Positions 4,841 through 14,511 are shown, numbered from the stretch's first letter. The stretch is DNA of 32,000 bases from an archaeon (GCA_024275415.1 JAJRZD010000043.1:30001-62000), one strand, 5' to 3'. A program made the numbers and translations. The notes: generated from the letters alone by a model not told the origin.

Positions 4841-5494
4841 TCACATGACTGCTTGATGGAGGCGTGACGATGATGTAGAAGAGCTCGCCTTCTCTAATGA
4901 GTGGTGGATGCTCCGCCAGGGAGCACTCAGGAAGATGACCTTATGTGGACGACTCTTCCTGTCAACCGCAACGAATCCTTTCTGCATCAAAGACTTTGTG
5001 TGCTTCCTGACATCAGCAGTTTTGAACCCAGAAGCCTTGGCCAACTCATTGTAGGATCCCCGTCCGAGAGAACGAAGGGTTTCAAGGAGCTTGAACTCTG
5101 GGATGGCGAGAAGCGTCTTCCGAAGACGGTCATTCTCTCTCCGTATCATCCCCTCATCACCTGATGTCACCACAGCCAAAGATGACCGCAGGTCATTTAT
5201 CTCCTCTAACAATGCTTGACGCTCAGATTCGAAACGCCCGAATATTCCTCGTGACTCATGAACCAGTTCGGCGCTGAGATCAGTACTAAGTCCATCCAAT
5301 GCCTCTTGAGATGCAACACATGCTTCTCTAATGATCCCAACCATGTCACTGGGCTCAATCCACTGCCCATTGATGAGAGACTCGATTTGAGTGAAGTAAT
5401 TCTCCAAACGCTTAGCCCATGTGTTTCGTACATCCTGAAAGACGCCTGCAAGTTTCAACGTCAGACGTGCTGCATTATCTTCTGGACTTTTCAT
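4841..5494 (-). CDS. Helical/coiled-coil protein with C-terminal winged-helix domain (putative regulator)
   Basis: Heptad-rich middle (ERQALLEEINDLRSSL, ENDRLRKTL). wHTH-like LLETLRSLGRGSYNELAKASG...VRKHTKSLMQKGFV. Confidence 0.7.
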   Translation of the reverse strand: MKSPEDNAARLTLKLAGVFQDVRNTWAKRLENYFTQIESLINGQWIEPSDMVGIIREACVASQEALDGLSTDLSAELVHESRGIFGRFESERQALLEEINDLRSSLAVVTSGDEGMIRRENDRLRKTLLAIPEFKLLETLRSLGRGSYNELAKASGFKTADVRKHTKSLMQKGFVAVDRKSRPHKVIFLSAPWRSIHHSLEKASSSTSSSRLHQAVM

Positions 5495-5557
5495 CTCGAC
5501 TCGACCTTCATGTATCGAACGAGCAAATGAGAGCGAGTGTTTCCCTCGTATGACACA

Positions 5558-6103
5558 CTAGAAGTATATAACACGGGTCTTCTCGATATGACTCCATGGA
5601 TACGGCGCCTGCACTGTACGTAGCATCCGCTGAATCAACTCATAGATTCCCCTAGGGTTCTCGATAGAGTAAAAGATGATAGCAGGCTCGTCCTCGCCAT
5701 TCGCAAAGATTTGGATATCCCCCTGATTGACGATACGGTCTTGGATGTTAGCAATTATCCGGACATCCGAGATGTCATCATAGAATACTCTTGTTGTTCG
5801 TTTTTTCAGATAGCCCTTGCGAACCCTCACGTTCCACGATGTGATGATGTAAAGCGTGTAGCGTCTCTTGACCTCTCGCCAGATGATGGTTCCAATACCA
5901 GCTGCCATCGCACATATCCCTGCAATCCACGCAACAAGGCTGAACTCGACGAATTGAACCGAACTGGCAATCATGAAGACCCAACCAACGATGAAAACTA
6001 TGAAGCCAAAAACATAGAAGACCAGACTTGAGATACGTTTTGGATGGAATTTAGCAATCAGAATCTCGTGTTGTATGTCATCAACAGTGGGATCATCGTT
6101 CAT
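5558..6103 (-). CDS. Membrane protein with bacterial PH (bPH_2, YdbS-like) domain
   Basis: Two TM helices followed by YIITSWNVRVRKGYLKKRTTRVFYDDISDVRI...RIVNQGDIQI, the bPH_2 pattern. Confidence 0.85.
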   Translation of the reverse strand: MNDDPTVDDIQHEILIAKFHPKRISSLVFYVFGFIVFIVGWVFMIASSVQFVEFSLVAWIAGICAMAAGIGTIIWREVKRRYTLYIITSWNVRVRKGYLKKRTTRVFYDDISDVRIIANIQDRIVNQGDIQIFANGEDEPAIIFYSIENPRGIYELIQRMLRTVQAPYPWSHIEKTRVIYF

Positions 6104-6221
6104 TCAATCATCTCCATTATCCCATTCGGACTCCTTCCTGCGTGAGTCTTAATGATACAAGAAAAGTCCCTGATTTTACCTTTTCCCTTTGTCAGATAGA
6201 GTACTCGATTCACAATCTTTT

Positions 6222-6281
6222 TATATAGTATGTGGTACATACTATATATGTCGTGACACGATATATATCGTTAAACGATAT
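6222..6281. promoter_or_regulatory. Divergent promoter covered by three overlapping palindromes (putative PadR operators)
   Basis: TATATAGTATGT-GGT-ACATACTATATA (6222-6248, perfect 12-3-12); ATATATGTCGTG-A-CACGATATATAT (6244-6268, one mismatch); ATATCGTT-A-AACGATAT (6265-6281, perfect 8-1-8). TATA-like TTTTTATATA overlaps the first. Confidence 0.7.
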
Positions 6282-6283
6282 TA

Positions 6284-6670
6284 GTGGTTGTGATGATAAT
6301 GGCCAAGGAGAACCAGAACCCTGAACTTGAGTACCAGAAGTGGAAACTTGAGGTACGAAGGGGAGCGTTGTCTTTGGCCATACTTGCAGTAATTTCTGCT
6401 GGACAGTCATATGGCTATGACATAATGAAGAAGCTTAGTGAAGGACATCTCAAGGCACTACAGGTAGAACCCAGCACCACATACCCATTGTTACGGCGTT
6501 TAGAGAAAAGGGGGATGCTTGAAGGGCATTCTGTAGAGTACGAGGGCAGGATGCGTCGGCACTACTACATCACCCGTGAAGGACGCGAATATTTAGACAG
6601 GATGGTTGAGTCATGGAAGGACTTGAACAATCAAATAGTACTTCTCCTAAAGGAGGCGGAGTTGATATGA
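6284..6670 (+). CDS. PadR-family transcriptional regulator
   Basis: RRGALSLAILAVIS...SYGYDIMKKL...VEPSTTYPLLRRLEKRG...RRHYYITREGREYL...W. The start could be GTG 6284 or ATG 6293/6299. Confidence 0.95.
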   Translation: MVVMIMAKENQNPELEYQKWKLEVRRGALSLAILAVISAGQSYGYDIMKKLSEGHLKALQVEPSTTYPLLRRLEKRGMLEGHSVEYEGRMRRHYYITREGREYLDRMVESWKDLNNQIVLLLKEAELI

Positions 6671-9126
6671 TCGAAGATGCGCTGAACGTGATCGAGAACT
6701 ACCTTACACTAGTAAGGAAGCACTTGCCCGAGAAGATTGCCATTGAGGTCATTGATGAGCTACGTTCGTATGTCATCGAGGCAGCAGAGGAAGAAGGTGG
6801 CGGGGTTCTTACCGTGGATAGCGCAAAACGAACCGTGTCCAGATTTGGTGCTCCTTCCGAGGTCGCAGAAGAGTACATCCATTCCATGATCATTGAGGAA
6901 GATGAACCTATCATGGGCTCGGTAGAAGAAGAAAGCCCTCCTGACAGTACCAGAATAGAACCGGAACCTGTGAGCAACTTAGTAGCATATGGCAAATTCC
7001 TGTTCACCGCAACAATATGGATATTGCTCACATCCATACCTACATTGCTGCTGACCGGAATCATCATAGCTCTCTTTTTGTCCGTGACCGCAATAATCGG
7101 TTTCTTTTTGCTTCTATACAACTGGCGTATAGGAAAATCGGTTACCAAGAGCCATTTTGATGAGTGGCCTCTACTTCAGCGCCTAGTCGCTATCCCTAGA
7201 GGGTTCATCCCAGAATTAGGCAAGAGAAGCATGGTACTTGAGGGCATACTAACAATTCAAGCTCTGATTCTCTTCATCATTACCCCATCCTTTTGGCTTA
7301 CTGTCCCATTCCTCGTATTGCGTCTTGGGATGCTTGTGAAAAGAATGGGAAATATGAACCCGTCAACATACGCATGGGTCGATGCCGTGCTGGAATTTCT
7401 GGGCGCACTGACGATTAACATAGGGTTCTTCTGGGCAGTGCATACTTACTATGGTGAGTATTACTGGTACTCTGTGTTCACGCCTTTCACAATGATTACT
7501 GCAATCTACTTTGTGATCTATTTGAATATCAGACTGGTCAGTCTGACACCAGAATTATGGGTCACGAACGATCGAGGTTATCCATCAGGCCGTGATGTTC
7601 CAACCTCGTACAGTAAAACAACATTCAAAGGGTTCATCTTAGGTGTATTCTGGTCACTCATGATTCCCTTGTTCACCATTCCTTTATTCGCATTGAGTGT
7701 TCCAGAAAGCGGTTATTTTGTGAACATCTATCTTGTATTATTGCTTATGTTCCAAATACCAGGAATAATAGCGATGAATATTGGGAACGCTATCAGAGCC
7801 TACAAGAAAGGAATCACATGGTGGGACATCAGCAAGCCCTCGTGGTCGCGCATCAGGAGGCTTCTTTCCTTTCCAAAGGGTGTCTTCATGGAACAATCGT
7901 CAGCCAGTCTACGACTGGACATGTCCGTAACATCATTGTTTATGGCAATGTCGGTCATCACCATCTTCAGGTTCTCATACGTTTTAGATCTCATCGTTGC
8001 ATTGGGTCTCTTTATAATATCATTAGGTATCCGCTTGGTCTTTCTTGACGAGCGATGGAAGAATCAACTTGCAAGGAAACACGACAAGGGAGAATATATC
8101 TCCACAATTTTTGCTTTGGTAGCAGGTTGTCTTCTAACCGCTATTGTCGGGTACACTGGTGTGATATGGGGAAGCAAACCCGGATTTATTCCCTACATGT
8201 GGCAACTTTTTCTCCCAGCTTGGGGGATATTCAGCACCTATCTCCTTTATAGTACAGTGGCTAGGGGTTCGACCCTTTGGAGTGAGAAGGCAGTTTCAGA
8301 ACCAACACCCTCAGAAACTACCGACACGGAACTCAGTGCGGAGAGGGTCGAACCCGATTTTAAGAAGAAAGTTGATGAAAAATTCAGACAGATACTAGTA
8401 GAGGTGCTGATGTGGAGTGTGGGTATTACAGTCCTCATCATCACCCTCCTCCTCGCTGGCTCGGAAGATGCAATCTCAATCCCGTTCTTAGTGGTCATGA
8501 CGTATACCTTGATATTCCTCACGCTTATTGCTCTGTCCGGAGAGATCCCAGCTATCATATATTATGCATGGAAGAAAAGACATGTCATCTCAACAAGTCA
8601 CCCATCGGCGATAGGGAAACGTAATAGAAAAGAAGCAATCGTGGATATGGTAGGCACCCTGTACTTGGTATTTATAATCACCGTGAATTCAGAAGTCATC
8701 AGCAGAGTTGTGGACAGATACATCAGTATCAGTTTCCTAGAAGGGTTCATCTCTTGGACGTTCAGGATACTATTTTGGACATTCATCATCTCAGCCTTAG
8801 TGTTCAGACTAGCAGCAGATGTAGCTAGCATCGTTGATGCTAAAGAACATAGTATGTACACGACACTGAAAACCAGCGCTGTTTTAGCGGTAATCACAAT
8901 TGGGCTCGTAATTGGGATATCGTTGCAATCCGGAATGGGCACGATTCTTGAAGGCAATCTCTTGGGATTCACAGGCGTCCTTATTGTGTTGTGTGCTTTG
9001 ATGATTTTACAAGCTGTAGTCACCAAGCACAAAATTATAGAGTTGGCTGAACATCAAGCGGAAGAGCGAGAACATGTGACTGTTGATGACCATGAATTGA
9101 AAGAAGTTGAGATTCCAACTAACTGA
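6667..9126 (+). CDS. Large polytopic membrane protein with N-terminal HAAS-like domain and three internal membrane repeats
   Basis: ATGA overlap with the PadR stop places the start at 6667. N-terminus YLTLVRKHLP...IDELRSYVIE...RFGAPSEVAEEY matches the PadR-associated HAAS/DUF1700-like pattern. Many TM helices follow. Confidence 0.8.
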   Translation: MIEDALNVIENYLTLVRKHLPEKIAIEVIDELRSYVIEAAEEEGGGVLTVDSAKRTVSRFGAPSEVAEEYIHSMIIEEDEPIMGSVEEESPPDSTRIEPEPVSNLVAYGKFLFTATIWILLTSIPTLLLTGIIIALFLSVTAIIGFFLLLYNWRIGKSVTKSHFDEWPLLQRLVAIPRGFIPELGKRSMVLEGILTIQALILFIITPSFWLTVPFLVLRLGMLVKRMGNMNPSTYAWVDAVLEFLGALTINIGFFWAVHTYYGEYYWYSVFTPFTMITAIYFVIYLNIRLVSLTPELWVTNDRGYPSGRDVPTSYSKTTFKGFILGVFWSLMIPLFTIPLFALSVPESGYFVNIYLVLLLMFQIPGIIAMNIGNAIRAYKKGITWWDISKPSWSRIRRLLSFPKGVFMEQSSASLRLDMSVTSLFMAMSVITIFRFSYVLDLIVALGLFIISLGIRLVFLDERWKNQLARKHDKGEYISTIFALVAGCLLTAIVGYTGVIWGSKPGFIPYMWQLFLPAWGIFSTYLLYSTVARGSTLWSEKAVSEPTPSETTDTELSAERVEPDFKKKVDEKFRQILVEVLMWSVGITVLIITLLLAGSEDAISIPFLVVMTYTLIFLTLIALSGEIPAIIYYAWKKRHVISTSHPSAIGKRNRKEAIVDMVGTLYLVFIITVNSEVISRVVDRYISISFLEGFISWTFRILFWTFIISALVFRLAADVASIVDAKEHSMYTTLKTSAVLAVITIGLVIGISLQSGMGTILEGNLLGFTGVLIVLCALMILQAVVTKHKIIELAEHQAEEREHVTVDDHELKEVEIPTN

Positions 9127-9216
9127 GCTGAGCGGTACACTATTGCGTCGTTCAGTAGACACTTTTATTATCAGAGTCCATCATTTAATAGACGACCTAG
9201 GTAGGAGCCAAAGCAA

Positions 9217-11097
9217 ATGAGTAGATTCTACGCGCTCACGATAGTGGTACTTCTTTTATTCACAAGCCTTCCCGTTTCAGCTCAGAACGACTATTCATTC
9301 ATCGCCAAAGACATCTACGATGTAGAGGAGGTCATTCCGGATCCTTTCTTGGCTTCAGATGGCAATATGACTTTTGAGAAGCATGATAACATAAATGAGC
9401 TCTCTGTTTCATACGAGCAATCTGAAGACCAGTCAGGTGTCGTGATTCTTAACTGGACTCATATTGCAGGAACTAAGCTAGAATACGACAATGACTCGTA
9501 TAGACCACGTGAGTACGTTTACTTCGCCCAGAACATTTCGTGGGATCATACAGTCATTCCTGCAAGTCTGAACATATCGGTCAATTATCAGATAGAAACA
9601 ACTGGGAATTTTAGCGATCAATCACCAATGAGATATTTCAATCTCGAAGCATGGGCTATCGACTCGTCTGGTGAATGGGATGCGCTTACTAGATTCTATG
9701 GAGTACCGGAACAGTATGAAACCAAAAGCGTTAGAGAAGCAAACAAATACGTCATGGAAAGATTGTTCGGTCCATTCATTCTTGGAGAACCTATTCAACT
9801 TCAATTTGCCATTGCATTGGCTCCATCATCCAGTTTCGTAATAGACCAAAACGCCCCTTGGAAAACATACAATGGTTCTATAATAGTTCGAGTCAAAGAG
9901 GTACATCTCCATGCCACGTTTAATGAGGTGGACAACTGGCCTTCAGTAGAACCACCAATCAACAATAGCACCTATCGAATATCAGAATCCGAGCGACTTG
10001 TAGATTCCTCTATCACACCTGATGGGGGAGTCTATGTTCTTTCATACCTAGAATCTAATAGCGATCCCTCAGGTTTTGTTTTGAGAAGAATCAATCCAAT
10101 GACTCAAACAGAGTGGTTGGTCAAATGGGATGCGTCCAGTCCAATATATTGGCGCTACGTTGGTGGGACTGATTTGTATGTATATCTAGTGGGAACTAAC
10201 AAGACTTCCAAAGCTTCTAGTGTTGTAGTATCAGCATTGAATTATGATGGCTCCTCTGCCTACAACTGGTCATATTCGATCTCGAATGATATTGTTACGA
10301 CCATCGATGTTGGATCAGACGGCTCTGTGTATTTGGGGCTGTACAAGTGGATTAGTGATGGCCGGTCTAGATTAGTCAAAATCGGACCTGATGGAAGTGT
10401 TCAATGGGAACTGAACGGAGATTCAGACGGAGCCACAGTTCTAATCGAGCTTGAAGGTGACTCGCAAGGAAATATCATCGGCTTGTCCGCAGATAGACTT
10501 TCAAAGATTGATGCAGACGGAAACATAAAATGGGAAATATTCAACGAGTTCGGAGGCTATGAGTATAATCTTCATATCATGGATGATGACTCGATCTTGC
10601 TGGTTTCGAACACGTACAGCGAAACGACAATCGTGAAAGTGTATAGCAATGGAACAATAGGCTGGGAGTACACGAACCGGATTACCTATGCAGACTCATG
10701 GAACGAGTATTCCTATGTCCCAGATATCGCACATAGTGGGGATGGTCGTATATTTGTCCTGTGTAATAACTATGGGTATCACAGGGCTGGGATCGTCATC
10801 GTCCTAAGTAGCTCTGGGAACCAACTCTATAACTTCACAGTGGCATTTGAAAAGGTCATATACGCGCCTTTCGAGGTTCCGTCCTACCAGAATATCCATC
10901 TAGATAATAATGGAATTCTCTATCTTGTGGGGAGAACGATTGACCCTGACTCATACTATGAGGTTGTTATTGCCACTTATGGAACCGAACCGACCTTTCT
11001 GGGTGTATCCATGACATATTTGGGTACGGTTGGCATCGCGTTGGTATCTGTCATTGTGGTAATTGCCATCATCCACTTCAGAAGAAAAACTGGCTGA
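9217..11097 (+). CDS. Secreted, C-terminally anchored surface protein with beta-propeller (PQQ/WD-like) repeats
   Basis: Signal peptide (ending LPVSA). Repeats of the type D(S)DGSVY...LVKIGPDGSVQW and IDADGNIKW. About 13 N-x-S/T sequons. C-terminal TM helix plus RRK. AGGAG SD upstream. Confidence 0.8.
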   Translation: MSRFYALTIVVLLLFTSLPVSAQNDYSFIAKDIYDVEEVIPDPFLASDGNMTFEKHDNINELSVSYEQSEDQSGVVILNWTHIAGTKLEYDNDSYRPREYVYFAQNISWDHTVIPASLNISVNYQIETTGNFSDQSPMRYFNLEAWAIDSSGEWDALTRFYGVPEQYETKSVREANKYVMERLFGPFILGEPIQLQFAIALAPSSSFVIDQNAPWKTYNGSIIVRVKEVHLHATFNEVDNWPSVEPPINNSTYRISESERLVDSSITPDGGVYVLSYLESNSDPSGFVLRRINPMTQTEWLVKWDASSPIYWRYVGGTDLYVYLVGTNKTSKASSVVVSALNYDGSSAYNWSYSISNDIVTTIDVGSDGSVYLGLYKWISDGRSRLVKIGPDGSVQWELNGDSDGATVLIELEGDSQGNIIGLSADRLSKIDADGNIKWEIFNEFGGYEYNLHIMDDDSILLVSNTYSETTIVKVYSNGTIGWEYTNRITYADSWNEYSYVPDIAHSGDGRIFVLCNNYGYHRAGIVIVLSSSGNQLYNFTVAFEKVIYAPFEVPSYQNIHLDNNGILYLVGRTIDPDSYYEVVIATYGTEPTFLGVSMTYLGTVGIALVSVIVVIAIIHFRRKTG

Positions 11098-11177
11098 GGA
11101 GTCGGGTCACCTTTATTTAGTTTCAAGCCAAAGCTATCTAAAAGATCTGTTCGGGCCCAGGAGCGTAAATTAAGAAC

Positions 11178-11945
11178 ATGCAAGAATATGCACTGTTGGC
11201 GGAAATCATGTGGAATATATCAGTGGGTGTGCTGATCGCTGGTCTATTCTATACTTTTGGTATGTTCACGCTGGGAAAGCTGTTCGCTGTAATCTCTGAT
11301 CACGGAGGCGATCATGATTACGAATCAGATGTGGAACATGACATTGACCATGACATGGAACATGATATTGACCATGACATGGAACATGACATTAGCCATG
11401 ACATAGACCACGACATCGACCATGAAAAGGACTACGACCACAGTTTCGACACTAGCGTGGGAATCGATGTCGATTCTCACTCGGGGTTTTTCGAGTTCTC
11501 CAGAGATGCCCCACTCGGAGTCACTATCGGCACTTCATTAGTGAGCTTCGGGTTCATCGGTACAATGATGTATTATGATGGGATTGCTATACCAGTCCTC
11601 GCAAAGATGGGGTTCCATTTTCTTTCTGTGTTCGTTATTGTCTACTCTATGCGTTGGGCACTCGGGCGGATCTTCATCGAATCAGGCTTTCACATGACCC
11701 CAAAGCATCTGGTTGGCAAAGAGGTCGAGGCCGTGTCTACTATTGATGATAGGTTTGGAGAGATCAGAACAGAAACAGAAATGGGGCTACGTAGATTCAA
11801 CGCCAAACCCTTTGAGAAGGGCAATACCTACAAAAAAGGCACCGTTGTATGGGTGATATCCGCCGATGATCGATTCGCCTATGTGGATCACAGAAAAGAC
11901 GTAAGAACGTGGACACAGGAACAAAGTCGTGCGGAAACAGATTGA
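11178..11945 (+). CDS. NfeD/YuaF/YqiJ-like membrane protein with His/Asp-rich repeat and C-terminal OB fold
   Basis: TM1, HD repeat, APLG...SFGFIG TM pair, then LVGKEVEAVSTIDDRFGEIR...YKKGTVVWVIS (OB-like). Lies upstream of a flotillin. Confidence 0.75.
   Translation: MQEYALLAEIMWNISVGVLIAGLFYTFGMFTLGKLFAVISDHGGDHDYESDVEHDIDHDMEHDIDHDMEHDISHDIDHDIDHEKDYDHSFDTSVGIDVDSHSGFFEFSRDAPLGVTIGTSLVSFGFIGTMMYYDGIAIPVLAKMGFHFLSVFVIVYSMRWALGRIFIESGFHMTPKHLVGKEVEAVSTIDDRFGEIRTETEMGLRRFNAKPFEKGNTYKKGTVVWVISADDRFAYVDHRKDVRTWTQEQSRAETD
11333..11428 (+). repeat. In-frame 24-bp tandem repeat (12-bp sub-period) encoding EHDIDHDM
   Basis: GGAACATGACATTGACCATGACAT at 11333, with near-identical copies at 11357 and 11381 and a degenerate fourth unit. 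Confidence 0.9.
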
Positions 11946-12322
11946 ACCCACGACCGCGTTCTGCTTTTTAAACTAACGATTTTCGCAGCGTGAAAAGTGA
12001 CTATTATTAATCAACAGACGCAGTTCTGTCATGTTCTCATTGAGTTATCTTTCTCCTCACGGGAAATAGGGGGGATGCTGTACGTCCAGTCATTCCCCTG
12101 AAGTACCGATTTTACCATGTTTTTTGCTGAAAGACTTTATATTCCTTCACAAGAAGTATCACTTGAGTGCACTGGATCCAGATTGGTTATCTGGATGCGC
12201 ACCTGTGGGATGATACAAAATGTGTCAATCTCCTTAACCAAGGGTGGATACATCGAGGGTTCTCATTCAGATAGCCAAAGAGAAACAAGTGCATTAAGAA
12301 AGAAGTGTGAGTAGAACAATAA

Positions 12323-13639
12323 ATGCAAGCGGGTACATGGGAATCGTTGGGCCTAACCATTGGTGTATTTGGCATCCTTCTTATTCTGCTGTTCGCCCTC
12401 TATGTGAAAAAGTATGTTCGTATATTTGACCCGAACATCTTCTTCGTTCATCTTCGAAGAGGAAAGGCAATCAGACAGGGCGAGGGTGGCATGGTCATTC
12501 GGATCCCGTTCCTGGATAGGATTCTTGCTGTTGATAGGACTGTCCAACAACTCGATATCTCAGCCGAGTCTGTCCTTTCAAAGGAGAAACAGAAAATCAA
12601 GCTGAGTGCTGTCCTTCAATGGCAGGCTGAGAACGCTATTGCCACGATTAATAATGTGAAATGGAGCGAAATACCTCCTCGGCTCACAGCTATTATTGAA
12701 TCAGTCATACGCACAGCATGTGCACAACTGTCTGTCGAAGAAATCCTTGAAGAACGCCAGTTGATCATCGAAGCCATCAAGAAGGAACTCATCGACATCG
12801 TTAGTGAGTGGGGCCTCAAAGTTGTCACTGTAGAGCTGGTTGACGTTTCAGTGGTAAACGAATCATTTCTCAGGGACATGGCAAAGCCCAGAGAGGCTGA
12901 AATGCACAGACTCGCGCAGATTGCACTCATTGATGCTGATCAGGAAACCGGAACACGTGACATCGAGCGTACAAAAGTACTCAGACAGAAGGAAATTGAA
13001 CGTGACAAGATGATAGGTGTCAAGGAACAGGAACAACTTCGTGAGATACAAGAAGCTGAAAAACGCAGAGAGCAAAGTGTTCTTGAAATCGAGCTTCAGA
13101 AAGAATTGATGTCCAAGAAATACGAGAAACAACAGGCTGAGGTGGAGGCCGCAAAAGATCTTGAGGTAGCCAAGTTTGCCGCCGAGGCTGAGAAGCAACG
13201 AAAGATAAAACAAGAAGTTGAGGTTCAGGCTCAGAAAATCCTTCAGGAAGCCGAAGCTGAGGCTACTAAGATTAGCGCAATCGCTGCTGCTGAAGCAGAC
13301 CAAATCAAGAAGATCACGTCAGCTCAGGCAGAAGGTATCAAGAAGACCCTTGAAGCCGCAAGGGACTATTCGCCTCAGGCCTTTGCAAGGGACTTCCTGC
13401 AAATGCTACCAGAAATCTATCGCAACATCGACATCGGTGACATCACACTCTTCGGTGGAGGAGGCGGTGGGGCAGATGGCGAAGGTGGCGATGGTGGTGC
13501 AGGTGCATTCCAAGTATTCGGCAATGTCATGCTTCCTATGATGATCATGGCGAAAATGATGGGATTTGATTTCCAGAAGCTGATGAAGGACTCCCTTGGT
13601 GAGTTTGCCGTCAAGGACGAAGAGAAGAAGAGCAAATAG
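12323..13639 (+). CDS. SPFH/Band-7 flotillin-like protein
   Basis: N-terminal TM helix; SPFH domain (VIRIPFLDR...VLSKEKQKI...IRTACAQLSVEEILEER...WGLKV); long AEA/EAE coiled coil; Gly-rich tail. Confidence 0.92.
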   Translation: MQAGTWESLGLTIGVFGILLILLFALYVKKYVRIFDPNIFFVHLRRGKAIRQGEGGMVIRIPFLDRILAVDRTVQQLDISAESVLSKEKQKIKLSAVLQWQAENAIATINNVKWSEIPPRLTAIIESVIRTACAQLSVEEILEERQLIIEAIKKELIDIVSEWGLKVVTVELVDVSVVNESFLRDMAKPREAEMHRLAQIALIDADQETGTRDIERTKVLRQKEIERDKMIGVKEQEQLREIQEAEKRREQSVLEIELQKELMSKKYEKQQAEVEAAKDLEVAKFAAEAEKQRKIKQEVEVQAQKILQEAEAEATKISAIAAAEADQIKKITSAQAEGIKKTLEAARDYSPQAFARDFLQMLPEIYRNIDIGDITLFGGGGGGADGEGGDGGAGAFQVFGNVMLPMMIMAKMMGFDFQKLMKDSLGEFAVKDEEKKSK

Positions 13640-13645
13640 AACGGA

Positions 13646-13686
13646 ACCCACCCCTGGTACGAATCCAAGGGTGTGGTCTGTTTTTC
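13646..13686. terminator. Hairpin with T tract between the convergent flotillin and tusA genes
   Basis: Imperfect stem ACCCACCCCTGG / CCAAGGGTGTGGT with a 7-nt loop, followed by CTGTTTTTC. Confidence 0.55.
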
Positions 13687-13935
13687 TTATTTTAAGCGTT
13701 TGATGTACCAGACGAGCTTCCCGTCCTCTTCGACAAGTTCGACAATCTCGTTCCCAGTACGTTCGGCCCAAGCTGGAAAGTCCTTCTTAGTACCAATATC
13801 GGTAGCAACGACCTTCAGAATCTGGCCAATTTCAATAGACTTGACCTGCTTCTTGGTTTGGAGTATTGGCATGGGGCATCGCAGCCCGCTAGCATCGAAT
13901 TCCTTGGCTACTTCGTGTTCGGTCATAGGTATCAA
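13687..13935 (-). CDS. tusA: TusA/SirA-family sulfur carrier protein
   Basis: FDASGLRCPMPIL with the catalytic Cys; GQILKVVATD...DFPAWAERTGNE. The start may be ATG 13926. Confidence 0.93.
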   Translation of the reverse strand: MIPMTEHEVAKEFDASGLRCPMPILQTKKQVKSIEIGQILKVVATDIGTKKDFPAWAERTGNEIVELVEEDGKLVWYIKRLK

Positions 13936-14127
13936 CCGGTTTTCCCCGCTTCAGAGGTCATTTATTATTTGCTATTGCGTCTTCACATGCTCAAGAGAGA
14001 ATTTCCGATTGTGAGGGCAAATATACCAGTTTAGTTTCTTGATGTAACTTTACTTACACATATCTTTCGTTTTATCACCATCATTAAATACCCCATTGGA
14101 AAGCAAAAAAGAGTAGGTGAACAGTTT

Positions 14128-14511
14128 ATGGCGTTCTACCAGTTACTCTTGTTTGTTCTCTTTGCACTGAACATGAGTGCCATGTTTAGTGGGTTCATGC
14201 TGGCAAGGAGAATGGGAATGTACCTCATGACACAGGTCATGATGCTCATGTTTGGGATGATAGTAGGTCTCATCGCACTAATCCTGCCATTCGTCGGGTT
14301 TGGCGATGTCGTGTACTGGCTACTGGTCGTTGATCTAGTGTTGGTACTTATCGCATTCCTTCTAGAATTCGGGACAGTCCTGCCCATTCTGATGAAGACC
14401 ATGCAAGGCGGACCAATCCACAGCTCGCACATCACGAATCTGATTTTGAGCCTGTTCTACCTGTTGGGTCTCGTCCTGTTCTGGACTGACATAATCGCCA
14501 TAGGTGCATAG
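14128..14511 (+). CDS. Small Met-rich 4-TM membrane protein of unknown function
   Basis: 127 aa, four hydrophobic helices, 11 Met in the first 44 residues, HSSH near the last TM. GGTGA SD upstream; stop lies just before the DsrE gene. Confidence 0.75.
   Translation: MAFYQLLLFVLFALNMSAMFSGFMLARRMGMYLMTQVMMLMFGMIVGLIALILPFVGFGDVVYWLLVVDLVLVLIAFLLEFGTVLPILMKTMQGGPIHSSHITNLILSLFYLLGLVLFWTDIIAIGA

Follow-up and report, generated by a model that had tools for sequence, protein, structure and literature searches.

Do the genes that run from a bPH_2 gene to a flotillin gene in one archaeal chromosome form a single system under the control of a PadR repressor, or are they neighbours that are transcribed, kept and lost independently? 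The stretch of DNA in which they lie (the window) comprises 32,000 nucleotides (G000:C21:30001-62000) of an assembly of 3.5 Mb in 127 contigs, the host of which we treat as an Asgard archaeon. The padR gene and the genes that follow it, for a HAAS-domain membrane protein, a surface beta-propeller protein, an NfeD-like protein and a flotillin, all lie on the (+) strand, with the bPH_2 gene divergent from padR. An earlier, sequence-only reading of this arrangement took it for an envelope-stress locus, namely a sigma-factor-free archaeal analogue of the sigma-W regulon of Bacillus subtilis, in which PadR, freed or trapped by a HAAS sensor, governs the genes for bPH_2, the propeller, NfeD and flotillin. 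Its six gene calls are borne out, those for bPH_2, PadR, HAAS and SPFH/flotillin by Pfam and those for NfeD and the propeller by predicted fold. Upon comparison with 41 genomes of the host's family (16 genera) and with a phylum-wide set of 151 genomes, the locus is probably better described as several separately transcribed, separable membrane modules that lie side by side in a single chromosomal slot of variable content. The evidence does not support one stress system under PadR control, because candidate operators occur only at padR promoters, the NfeD and flotillin genes have predicted promoters of their own, and the modules are separable.

The padR gene (6299..6670, (+)) encodes a winged-helix repressor of the short PadR subfamily, with 123 residues counted from the ATG at 6299, which alignment with orthologues marks as the most likely start within the open reading frame 6284-6670(+). 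It matches the Pfam model at 60.5 bits against a cut-off of 27 (E 1.5e-16), TIGR03433 at E 1.7e-18, and PadR proteins in the PDB at E values down to 5.5e-17. When 17 orthologous upstream regions are aligned, they share one layout, in which a purine-rich, GAAAAG-type stretch resembling a transcription factor B recognition element (BRE) is followed by a TTTATATA-type box and then by the candidate operators. In the window, the putative TATA box TTTATATA lies at 6220..6227 (+), and the operators are three tandem, overlapping 19-bp palindromes (6226-6244, 6247-6265 and 6264-6282; no strand assigned) with the consensus TAnnnYGT-N3-ACRnnnTA. The palindromes first remarked at 6222-6281 are real, in that none of 100 shuffles gives a match, and they make up a triplet of a single conserved motif, which recurs at 43 sites in all 17 of the padR promoters from 17 genomes, in one to four copies each, abutting the TATA box and spanning positions -85 to -20 relative to the padR start. 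Because these operators cover the region from TATA box to start, we infer that PadR represses its own padR-HAAS operon. PadR proteins are associated with operators of the ATGT-N8-ACAT type, whereas the core here is GT-N3-AC. An archaeal PadR operator and promoter architecture is in this way sharply defined, and it is conserved in 17 genomes.

If PadR also governed the remaining genes of the locus, as had been proposed, the same palindromes would be expected ahead of those for the propeller, NfeD and flotillin. None is there: a scan matrix built from the 43 sites returns no site of at least 14 bits in 9100-12330 of the window, the region that includes the upstream sequences of all three. Over the whole genome, 12 sites score at least 14 bits as against 15-22 in shuffled sequence, which is no excess, and in ~300 kb of relatives' loci sites are confined to padR promoters, bar two stray ones. 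Single operator-like sites elsewhere in the genome were rejected as regulon members, being no commoner than in shuffles and having unrelated genes nearby; these neighbours include phosphate-binding/PhoU and LysE/DUF389 genes among others.

The NfeD and flotillin genes, in turn, each have a predicted promoter of their own. For the NfeD gene (11178..11945, (+)), the putative TATA box TTTATTTA at 11112..11119 (+) contains a TTTAT that is invariant in 12 of 12 genomes, and the box is kept in these genomes whatever gene lies upstream, be it propeller, HAAS or an unrelated one. For the flotillin gene (12323..13639, (+)), a predicted BRE/TATA pair, GAAAGAC-TTTATATT, at 12129..12143 (+) is conserved in eight aligned NfeD-flotillin spacers and a further conserved stretch, a putative initiator region, comes after it at 12160-12172. 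The two genes are set apart by a T5 run and a spacer of 377 nucleotides (11946-12322); across the family this spacer measures 220-390 nucleotides, as against 6 in a sister family. The flotillin transcript would accordingly have a leader of ~150 nucleotides, which holds an 8-bp hairpin (12176-12196). Within the genus, a second conserved element resembling GAAAAG-TTATTAAT is seen near 11995-12015.

Gene order among relatives points in the same direction. The slot is bounded on its left by the winged-helix and bPH_2 genes, and on its right by genes for TusA, DUF5400, DsrE, a luciferase-like oxidoreductase and a histidine kinase. Between these flanks it is empty in five genera; it holds PadR-HAAS alone (G052, one metagenome contig), or NfeD beside bPH_2 or NfeD-flotillin without PadR-HAAS (G045, and G018 with an inserted STAND NTPase gene), or PadR-HAAS with NfeD and in some cases flotillin (genera g6 and g8), or PadR-HAAS, one or two propeller genes and NfeD-flotillin (genus g1). 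Among the 41 family genomes, flotillin and PadR occur together in 13, flotillin alone in 4, PadR alone in 6 and neither in 18. NfeD-flotillin is found without the dyad in G018, G045, G009, G024, G046 and G025, and dyads that have moved elsewhere have unrelated neighbour genes. Mobile or defence-type genes lie by the slot or by a dyad in three genomes, namely the STAND NTPase gene of G018 (L020:6377-8539), a DDE transposase gene beside padR in G012 (L057:4870-5715) and an McrBC gene beside the dyad in G044 (L063:741-1958). Such genes in or beside the slot would fit a rearrangement-prone region. The expectation that the gene set would stay together in related genomes thus fails outside parts of four genera, elsewhere in the family the modules lie apart, and a variable genomic slot of this kind can mimic an operon closely enough to invite the naming of a new system, a call that is here removed.

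Several observations pull against separate modules and have to be set beside this evidence. The intervals from the HAAS gene to the propeller gene and on to the NfeD gene contain no run of five or more T residues, and the lack of a strong T-run terminator there would permit read-through from the padR promoter. An NfeD gene in the same orientation comes straight after the dyad, although only in four genera of one family: g1, where propeller genes intervene, g6, g8, and g7, as represented by G043. The latter genome carries, besides its canonical NfeD-flotillin pair, a second and diverged NfeD-like paralogue beside the dyad. The presence of PadR and that of flotillin are positively associated across the family, with an odds ratio of ~10 that comes from non-independent genomes. 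Finally, the promoters, operators and complex that are described here are all computational.

How far do these points revive control of the whole locus by PadR? The missing terminator, the shared strand with a divergent bPH_2 gene, and the full or partial gene order kept in g1, g6 and g8 are what such a regulon would predict, and homologous gene types are indeed co-regulated in B. subtilis, where ydbST and yuaF-floT belong to the sigma-W regulon, just as the sequence-only reading had stated (PMC3498285). Yet the operators are restricted to the padR promoter, here and in relatives; the NfeD and flotillin promoters are conserved regardless of the upstream gene; the T5 run and 377-nucleotide spacer part NfeD from flotillin; most genera retain bPH_2 in the absence of PadR, and its putative promoter is placed away from the padR operators; and the modules occur separately in many genomes. 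We therefore consider such a regulon very unlikely. What survives of the envelope-stress proposal is its gene set and the PadR-HAAS dyad, while PadR control of the bPH_2, propeller, NfeD and flotillin genes does not.

A second alternative would dispense with shared transcription. The HAAS protein, the propeller and NfeD-flotillin might cooperate in the membrane, for example with the HAAS sensor residing in, or monitoring, flotillin assemblies, and their adjacency would be the remnant of an ancestral functional cluster. The position of the dyad next to the NfeD gene in four genera is consistent with this idea, and the retention in G043 of a separate NfeD-like paralogue beside the dyad hints at a functional link; the same genome also has a propeller-like gene beside its dyad, a further point in favour. 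All of the locus products, that is the HAAS protein, propeller, NfeD and flotillin, are predicted membrane or surface proteins, and when genera are ranked by sequence identity, the orders for PadR, flotillin and bPH_2 run roughly parallel, as would fit an ancestral cluster that was inherited vertically and later lost in places. Against these points, the dyad persists in six genomes that yielded no flotillin, four genomes have a flotillin but yielded no PadR orthologue, relocated dyads are without membrane-scaffold neighbours, and all cases fall within one family and represent few independent events. We judge cooperation of this kind to be unlikely. A combined reading, in which either the padR promoter reads through into the propeller and NfeD genes where these are adjacent or the HAAS protein monitors NfeD-flotillin, appears quite unlikely as well. 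In either variant, an anti-repressor switch tethered to the membrane of an Asgard archaeon would be linked to flotillin-type scaffolds, a sigma-factor-free analogue of sigma-W/Psp circuits, and a true link to NfeD-flotillin would be the first regulatory handle on such scaffolds in archaea close to eukaryotes.

Taking the locus, then, as a row of separable modules, the first of these is the dyad of PadR and the HAAS protein. The HAAS gene (6667..9126, (+)) encodes 819 residues and matches Pfam HAAS (PF22564) at 29.8 bits against a cut-off of 27. Its ATG at 6667 overlaps the padR stop as ATGA, with a GGAGG ~10 nucleotides upstream; a longer reading frame from the ATG at 6613 was rejected, and the start at 6667 is conserved in orthologues. 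PadR orthologues (E <= 1e-30) are present in 19 of the 41 family genomes, and a HAAS gene follows directly after every one for which the flank was fetched (17 genomes), mostly with the same 4-nucleotide ATGA overlap. The claim that the two genes form a conserved, translationally coupled pair is thus upheld, and PadR-HAAS is, judging from these flanks, a robust and self-contained dyad. The same genome holds two further PadR-HAAS dyads with different membrane parts (L070, G000:C41:2729-3558, and L071, G000:C72:4585-6036), whose HAAS proteins have 159 and 360 residues, respectively, and whose coding regions overlap or abut padR.

In the HAAS protein, residues 1-80 form the cytoplasmic HAAS domain; a multi-pass region that varies among orthologues comes next, and a conserved module of ~235 residues (575-805) lies at the C-terminus. 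The FGAP sequence, a GxP motif associated with the third helix, is invariant in 15 of 15 HAAS domains. Orthologues range from 329 to 1103 residues and always end in the ~235-residue module, which is duplicated in one genus; lengths step by ~250 residues between genera. A clean three-fold tandem repeat within the protein is unsupported, in that a profile of the module gives no more than weak matches (E 0.01-0.05) to internal regions and self-BLAST of the protein gives no internal repeat. A word-based homologue search with the C-terminal module returned only the query itself, and among 1.84 billion proteins a mere 66 representative clusters match the module, the majority of which have a HAAS domain at the N-terminus. 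The module would thereby mark out a small, Asgard-restricted family of membrane sensors.

How might the dyad work? The proposed interaction between PadR and the HAAS domain is supported by modelling of two PadR chains with HAAS residues 1-80 alongside three controls, in which the predicted complex scores 0.67 and the best of the three controls 0.01; 58 of 80 solved complexes attain that mark, as do 2 of 110 mismatched pairs. Between runs at least 96% of contacts agree, and the partner has a predicted local distance difference test score (pLDDT) of 87. A sequence search returned no HAAS relative of solved structure, which makes it unlikely that the score merely reproduces a known complex. The predicted interface pairs PadR residues 39-43, 57-70 and 84-87, which we take to be the second helix, the recognition helix and the wing, with HAAS residues 27-39, 59-62 and 65-76, so that the contact from the HAAS side involves helix 2, the FGAP turn (residues 59-62) and helix 3.

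These features suggest a simple switch. A PadR dimer on two or three of the tandem 19-bp palindromes at its own promoter would repress the padR-HAAS operon, and the cytoplasmic HAAS domain of the co-translated, polytopic protein would occupy the recognition helix and wing of PadR. Because HAAS would sit on the very elements that read DNA, its binding to PadR should compete with that of DNA. If a membrane signal altered the HAAS conformation, PadR could then be captured or released and the operon thereby switched, the main output of the dyad being in that case its own operon, that is to say, the large membrane protein. In Listeria, the operator-recognition residues mutated in LltR are L49, R51 and L52 (PMC6624303), and by sequence position these appear to fall in the equivalent LLRRL motif of the recognition helix. 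The model offers a structural hypothesis for HAAS signalling, so far proposed only in general terms, in which HAAS occupies the DNA-reading face of PadR.

Dyads of HAAS and PadR-like winged helix-turn-helix proteins have been described in Psp-type contexts (Ravi et al. 2024, PMC11237479), as the sequence-only reading had held, and the lltR-lmo0600(DUF1700)-lmo0601 genes of Listeria monocytogenes supply a close and experimentally tested parallel, an operon of this type in which LltR acts mainly to repress its own genes (PMC6624303). Here, too, a standalone PadR gene is followed by an N-terminal, three-helix HAAS domain with a GxP motif, fused to membrane spans; autorepression is likely, the regulon is apparently centred on the dyad's own operon, and the groove around the GxP is the predicted PadR contact. 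The differences lie in the archaeal (Asgard) host with its putative BRE/TATA promoter, and in the lineage-restricted membrane module (66 representative clusters). Pfam scans across the locus and adjoining genes reveal no PspC, LiaI-LiaF-TM/LiaF or Toastrack domain, frequent but not obligatory companions of known dyads, and there is no PspA partner nearby. Both module types are already known (PMC11237479); what is new is an archaeal member with a lineage-restricted membrane module.

The surface propeller protein (9217..11097, (+)) would constitute the second, fast-evolving module. For this protein and the NfeD-like one, identification from sequence by Pfam, NCBIfam and PDB sequence searches failed, so that predicted folds were needed. 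The propeller protein has no Pfam match, and a word search found only one distant relative. By AlphaFold2 (pLDDT 77.5) and Foldseek, it is predicted to comprise a signal helix, a beta-sandwich, a beta-propeller of ~340 residues and a C-terminal membrane anchor, with Foldseek matches (probability 1.00) to CylK, the PQQ-like protein 3hxj, YncE, YxaL and BamB. Within one genus, identity among orthologues is only 26-34% both for the propeller protein and for the membrane part of its HAAS neighbour, as against 81-90% for PadR and flotillin; this low identity, together with duplication of the propeller gene, suggests that surface-exposed parts evolve rapidly. The duplications are seen in G006 and G002, and one of the G006 copies is frameshifted.

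Next comes the NfeD/YqiJ/YuaF-like protein, for which the predicted structure has three membrane helices (2-42, 113-131 and 140-169) and a C-terminal OB domain of five strands (182-237). No Pfam or NCBIfam match is found even at E values up to 10, and PDB profile matches were dismissed because they are of low complexity, to a His/Asp repeat only. A protein language model gave a lead to NfeD_TM and YqiJ clusters and put the protein's own cluster in Promethearchaeota, and the best PDB matches of the OB domain are all NfeD domains: 3cp0 (target TM-score 0.87), YuaF 2k14, YbbJ 8z5g, Pyrococcus 2exd and 3wwv. The His/Asp repeat, made of (H-D-x-D/E) units, forms a disordered loop at residues 43-110 (window 11300-11510) between helices 1 and 2. 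Its length varies from ~20 to more than 100 residues among orthologues, it is absent from the G043 paralogue, and it may bind metal.

The flotillin-type SPFH protein is predicted to consist of an N-terminal membrane hairpin, an SPFH domain and a long, Glu/Ala-rich coiled coil. It matches Band_7 at E 5e-22, and its alignment with human flotillin-1 (E 2.8e-9) spans residues 54-375; the Pfam Flot domain scores 24.7 bits, just below its cut-off of 27, and the FloT equivalog model 44.8 bits, far under its cut-off of 700. Among the 151 phylum genomes an orthologue is found only in the host's family (12 of 26 sampled) and in one sister family, and in every relative for which the upstream flank of the flotillin gene was retrieved, an NfeD gene lies upstream on the same strand. 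This order, with the gene for a three-helix OB protein upstream of that for a flotillin-type SPFH protein, is shared with yuaF-floT of B. subtilis, yqiJ-yqiK of Escherichia coli, QmcA-YbbJ (PDB 8z5g) and PH1510/PH1511 of Pyrococcus. Unlike those pairs, the one described here has no Pfam NfeD sequence match, a variable His/Asp loop after helix 1 and, in the host's family, separate conserved putative promoters and a spacer of 220-390 nucleotides. NfeD and flotillin are nonetheless an ordinary prokaryotic scaffold pair, each with its own conserved putative promoter.

The bPH_2 gene (5558..6103, (-)) encodes a YdbS-like membrane protein of 181 residues (Pfam E 2.3e-9), with two N-terminal hydrophobic, presumably membrane-spanning helices ahead of the bPH_2 domain. 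It is present in single copy in 35 of the 41 family genomes and in all 16 genera. Next to it, outside the coordinates of the sequence-only reading, lies a gene (4841..5494, (-)) for a 217-residue protein with a C-terminal winged helix and a weak TrmB/MarR-type match in Pfam, and this gene adjoins bPH_2 in most of 30 family loci, whether PadR is present or not. From this context, bPH_2 is taken to belong with its winged-helix neighbour and not with PadR, and the two would make up the conserved left flank of the variable slot. The B. subtilis ydbST operon pairs YdbS with a YdbT-like partner; here, no YdbT-like, multi-bPH_2 partner lies beside the bPH_2 gene, its neighbour being instead the winged-helix protein, which has no bPH_2 domain. 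With the sigma-W regulon as a whole (ydbST, yuaF-floT-yuaI) the locus shares the company of bPH_2, NfeD and flotillin gene types; it differs in that no shared regulatory site was found and the link is positional only, in part of one family.

Some minor observations may be added. The bPH_2 and winged-helix genes (4841-6103) are an uncharacterised conserved pair in their own right, often with an AhpC/redoxin gene beside them in the family loci, in many of the 16 genera. No Rfam match is found in 5000-14500 of the window at E values up to 0.1, and a look-up of sequencing runs for 5500-13700 listed none. A TusA gene on the opposite strand (13687-13935) closes the gene block, and relatives of the host encode Arf/Roc-type small GTPases.

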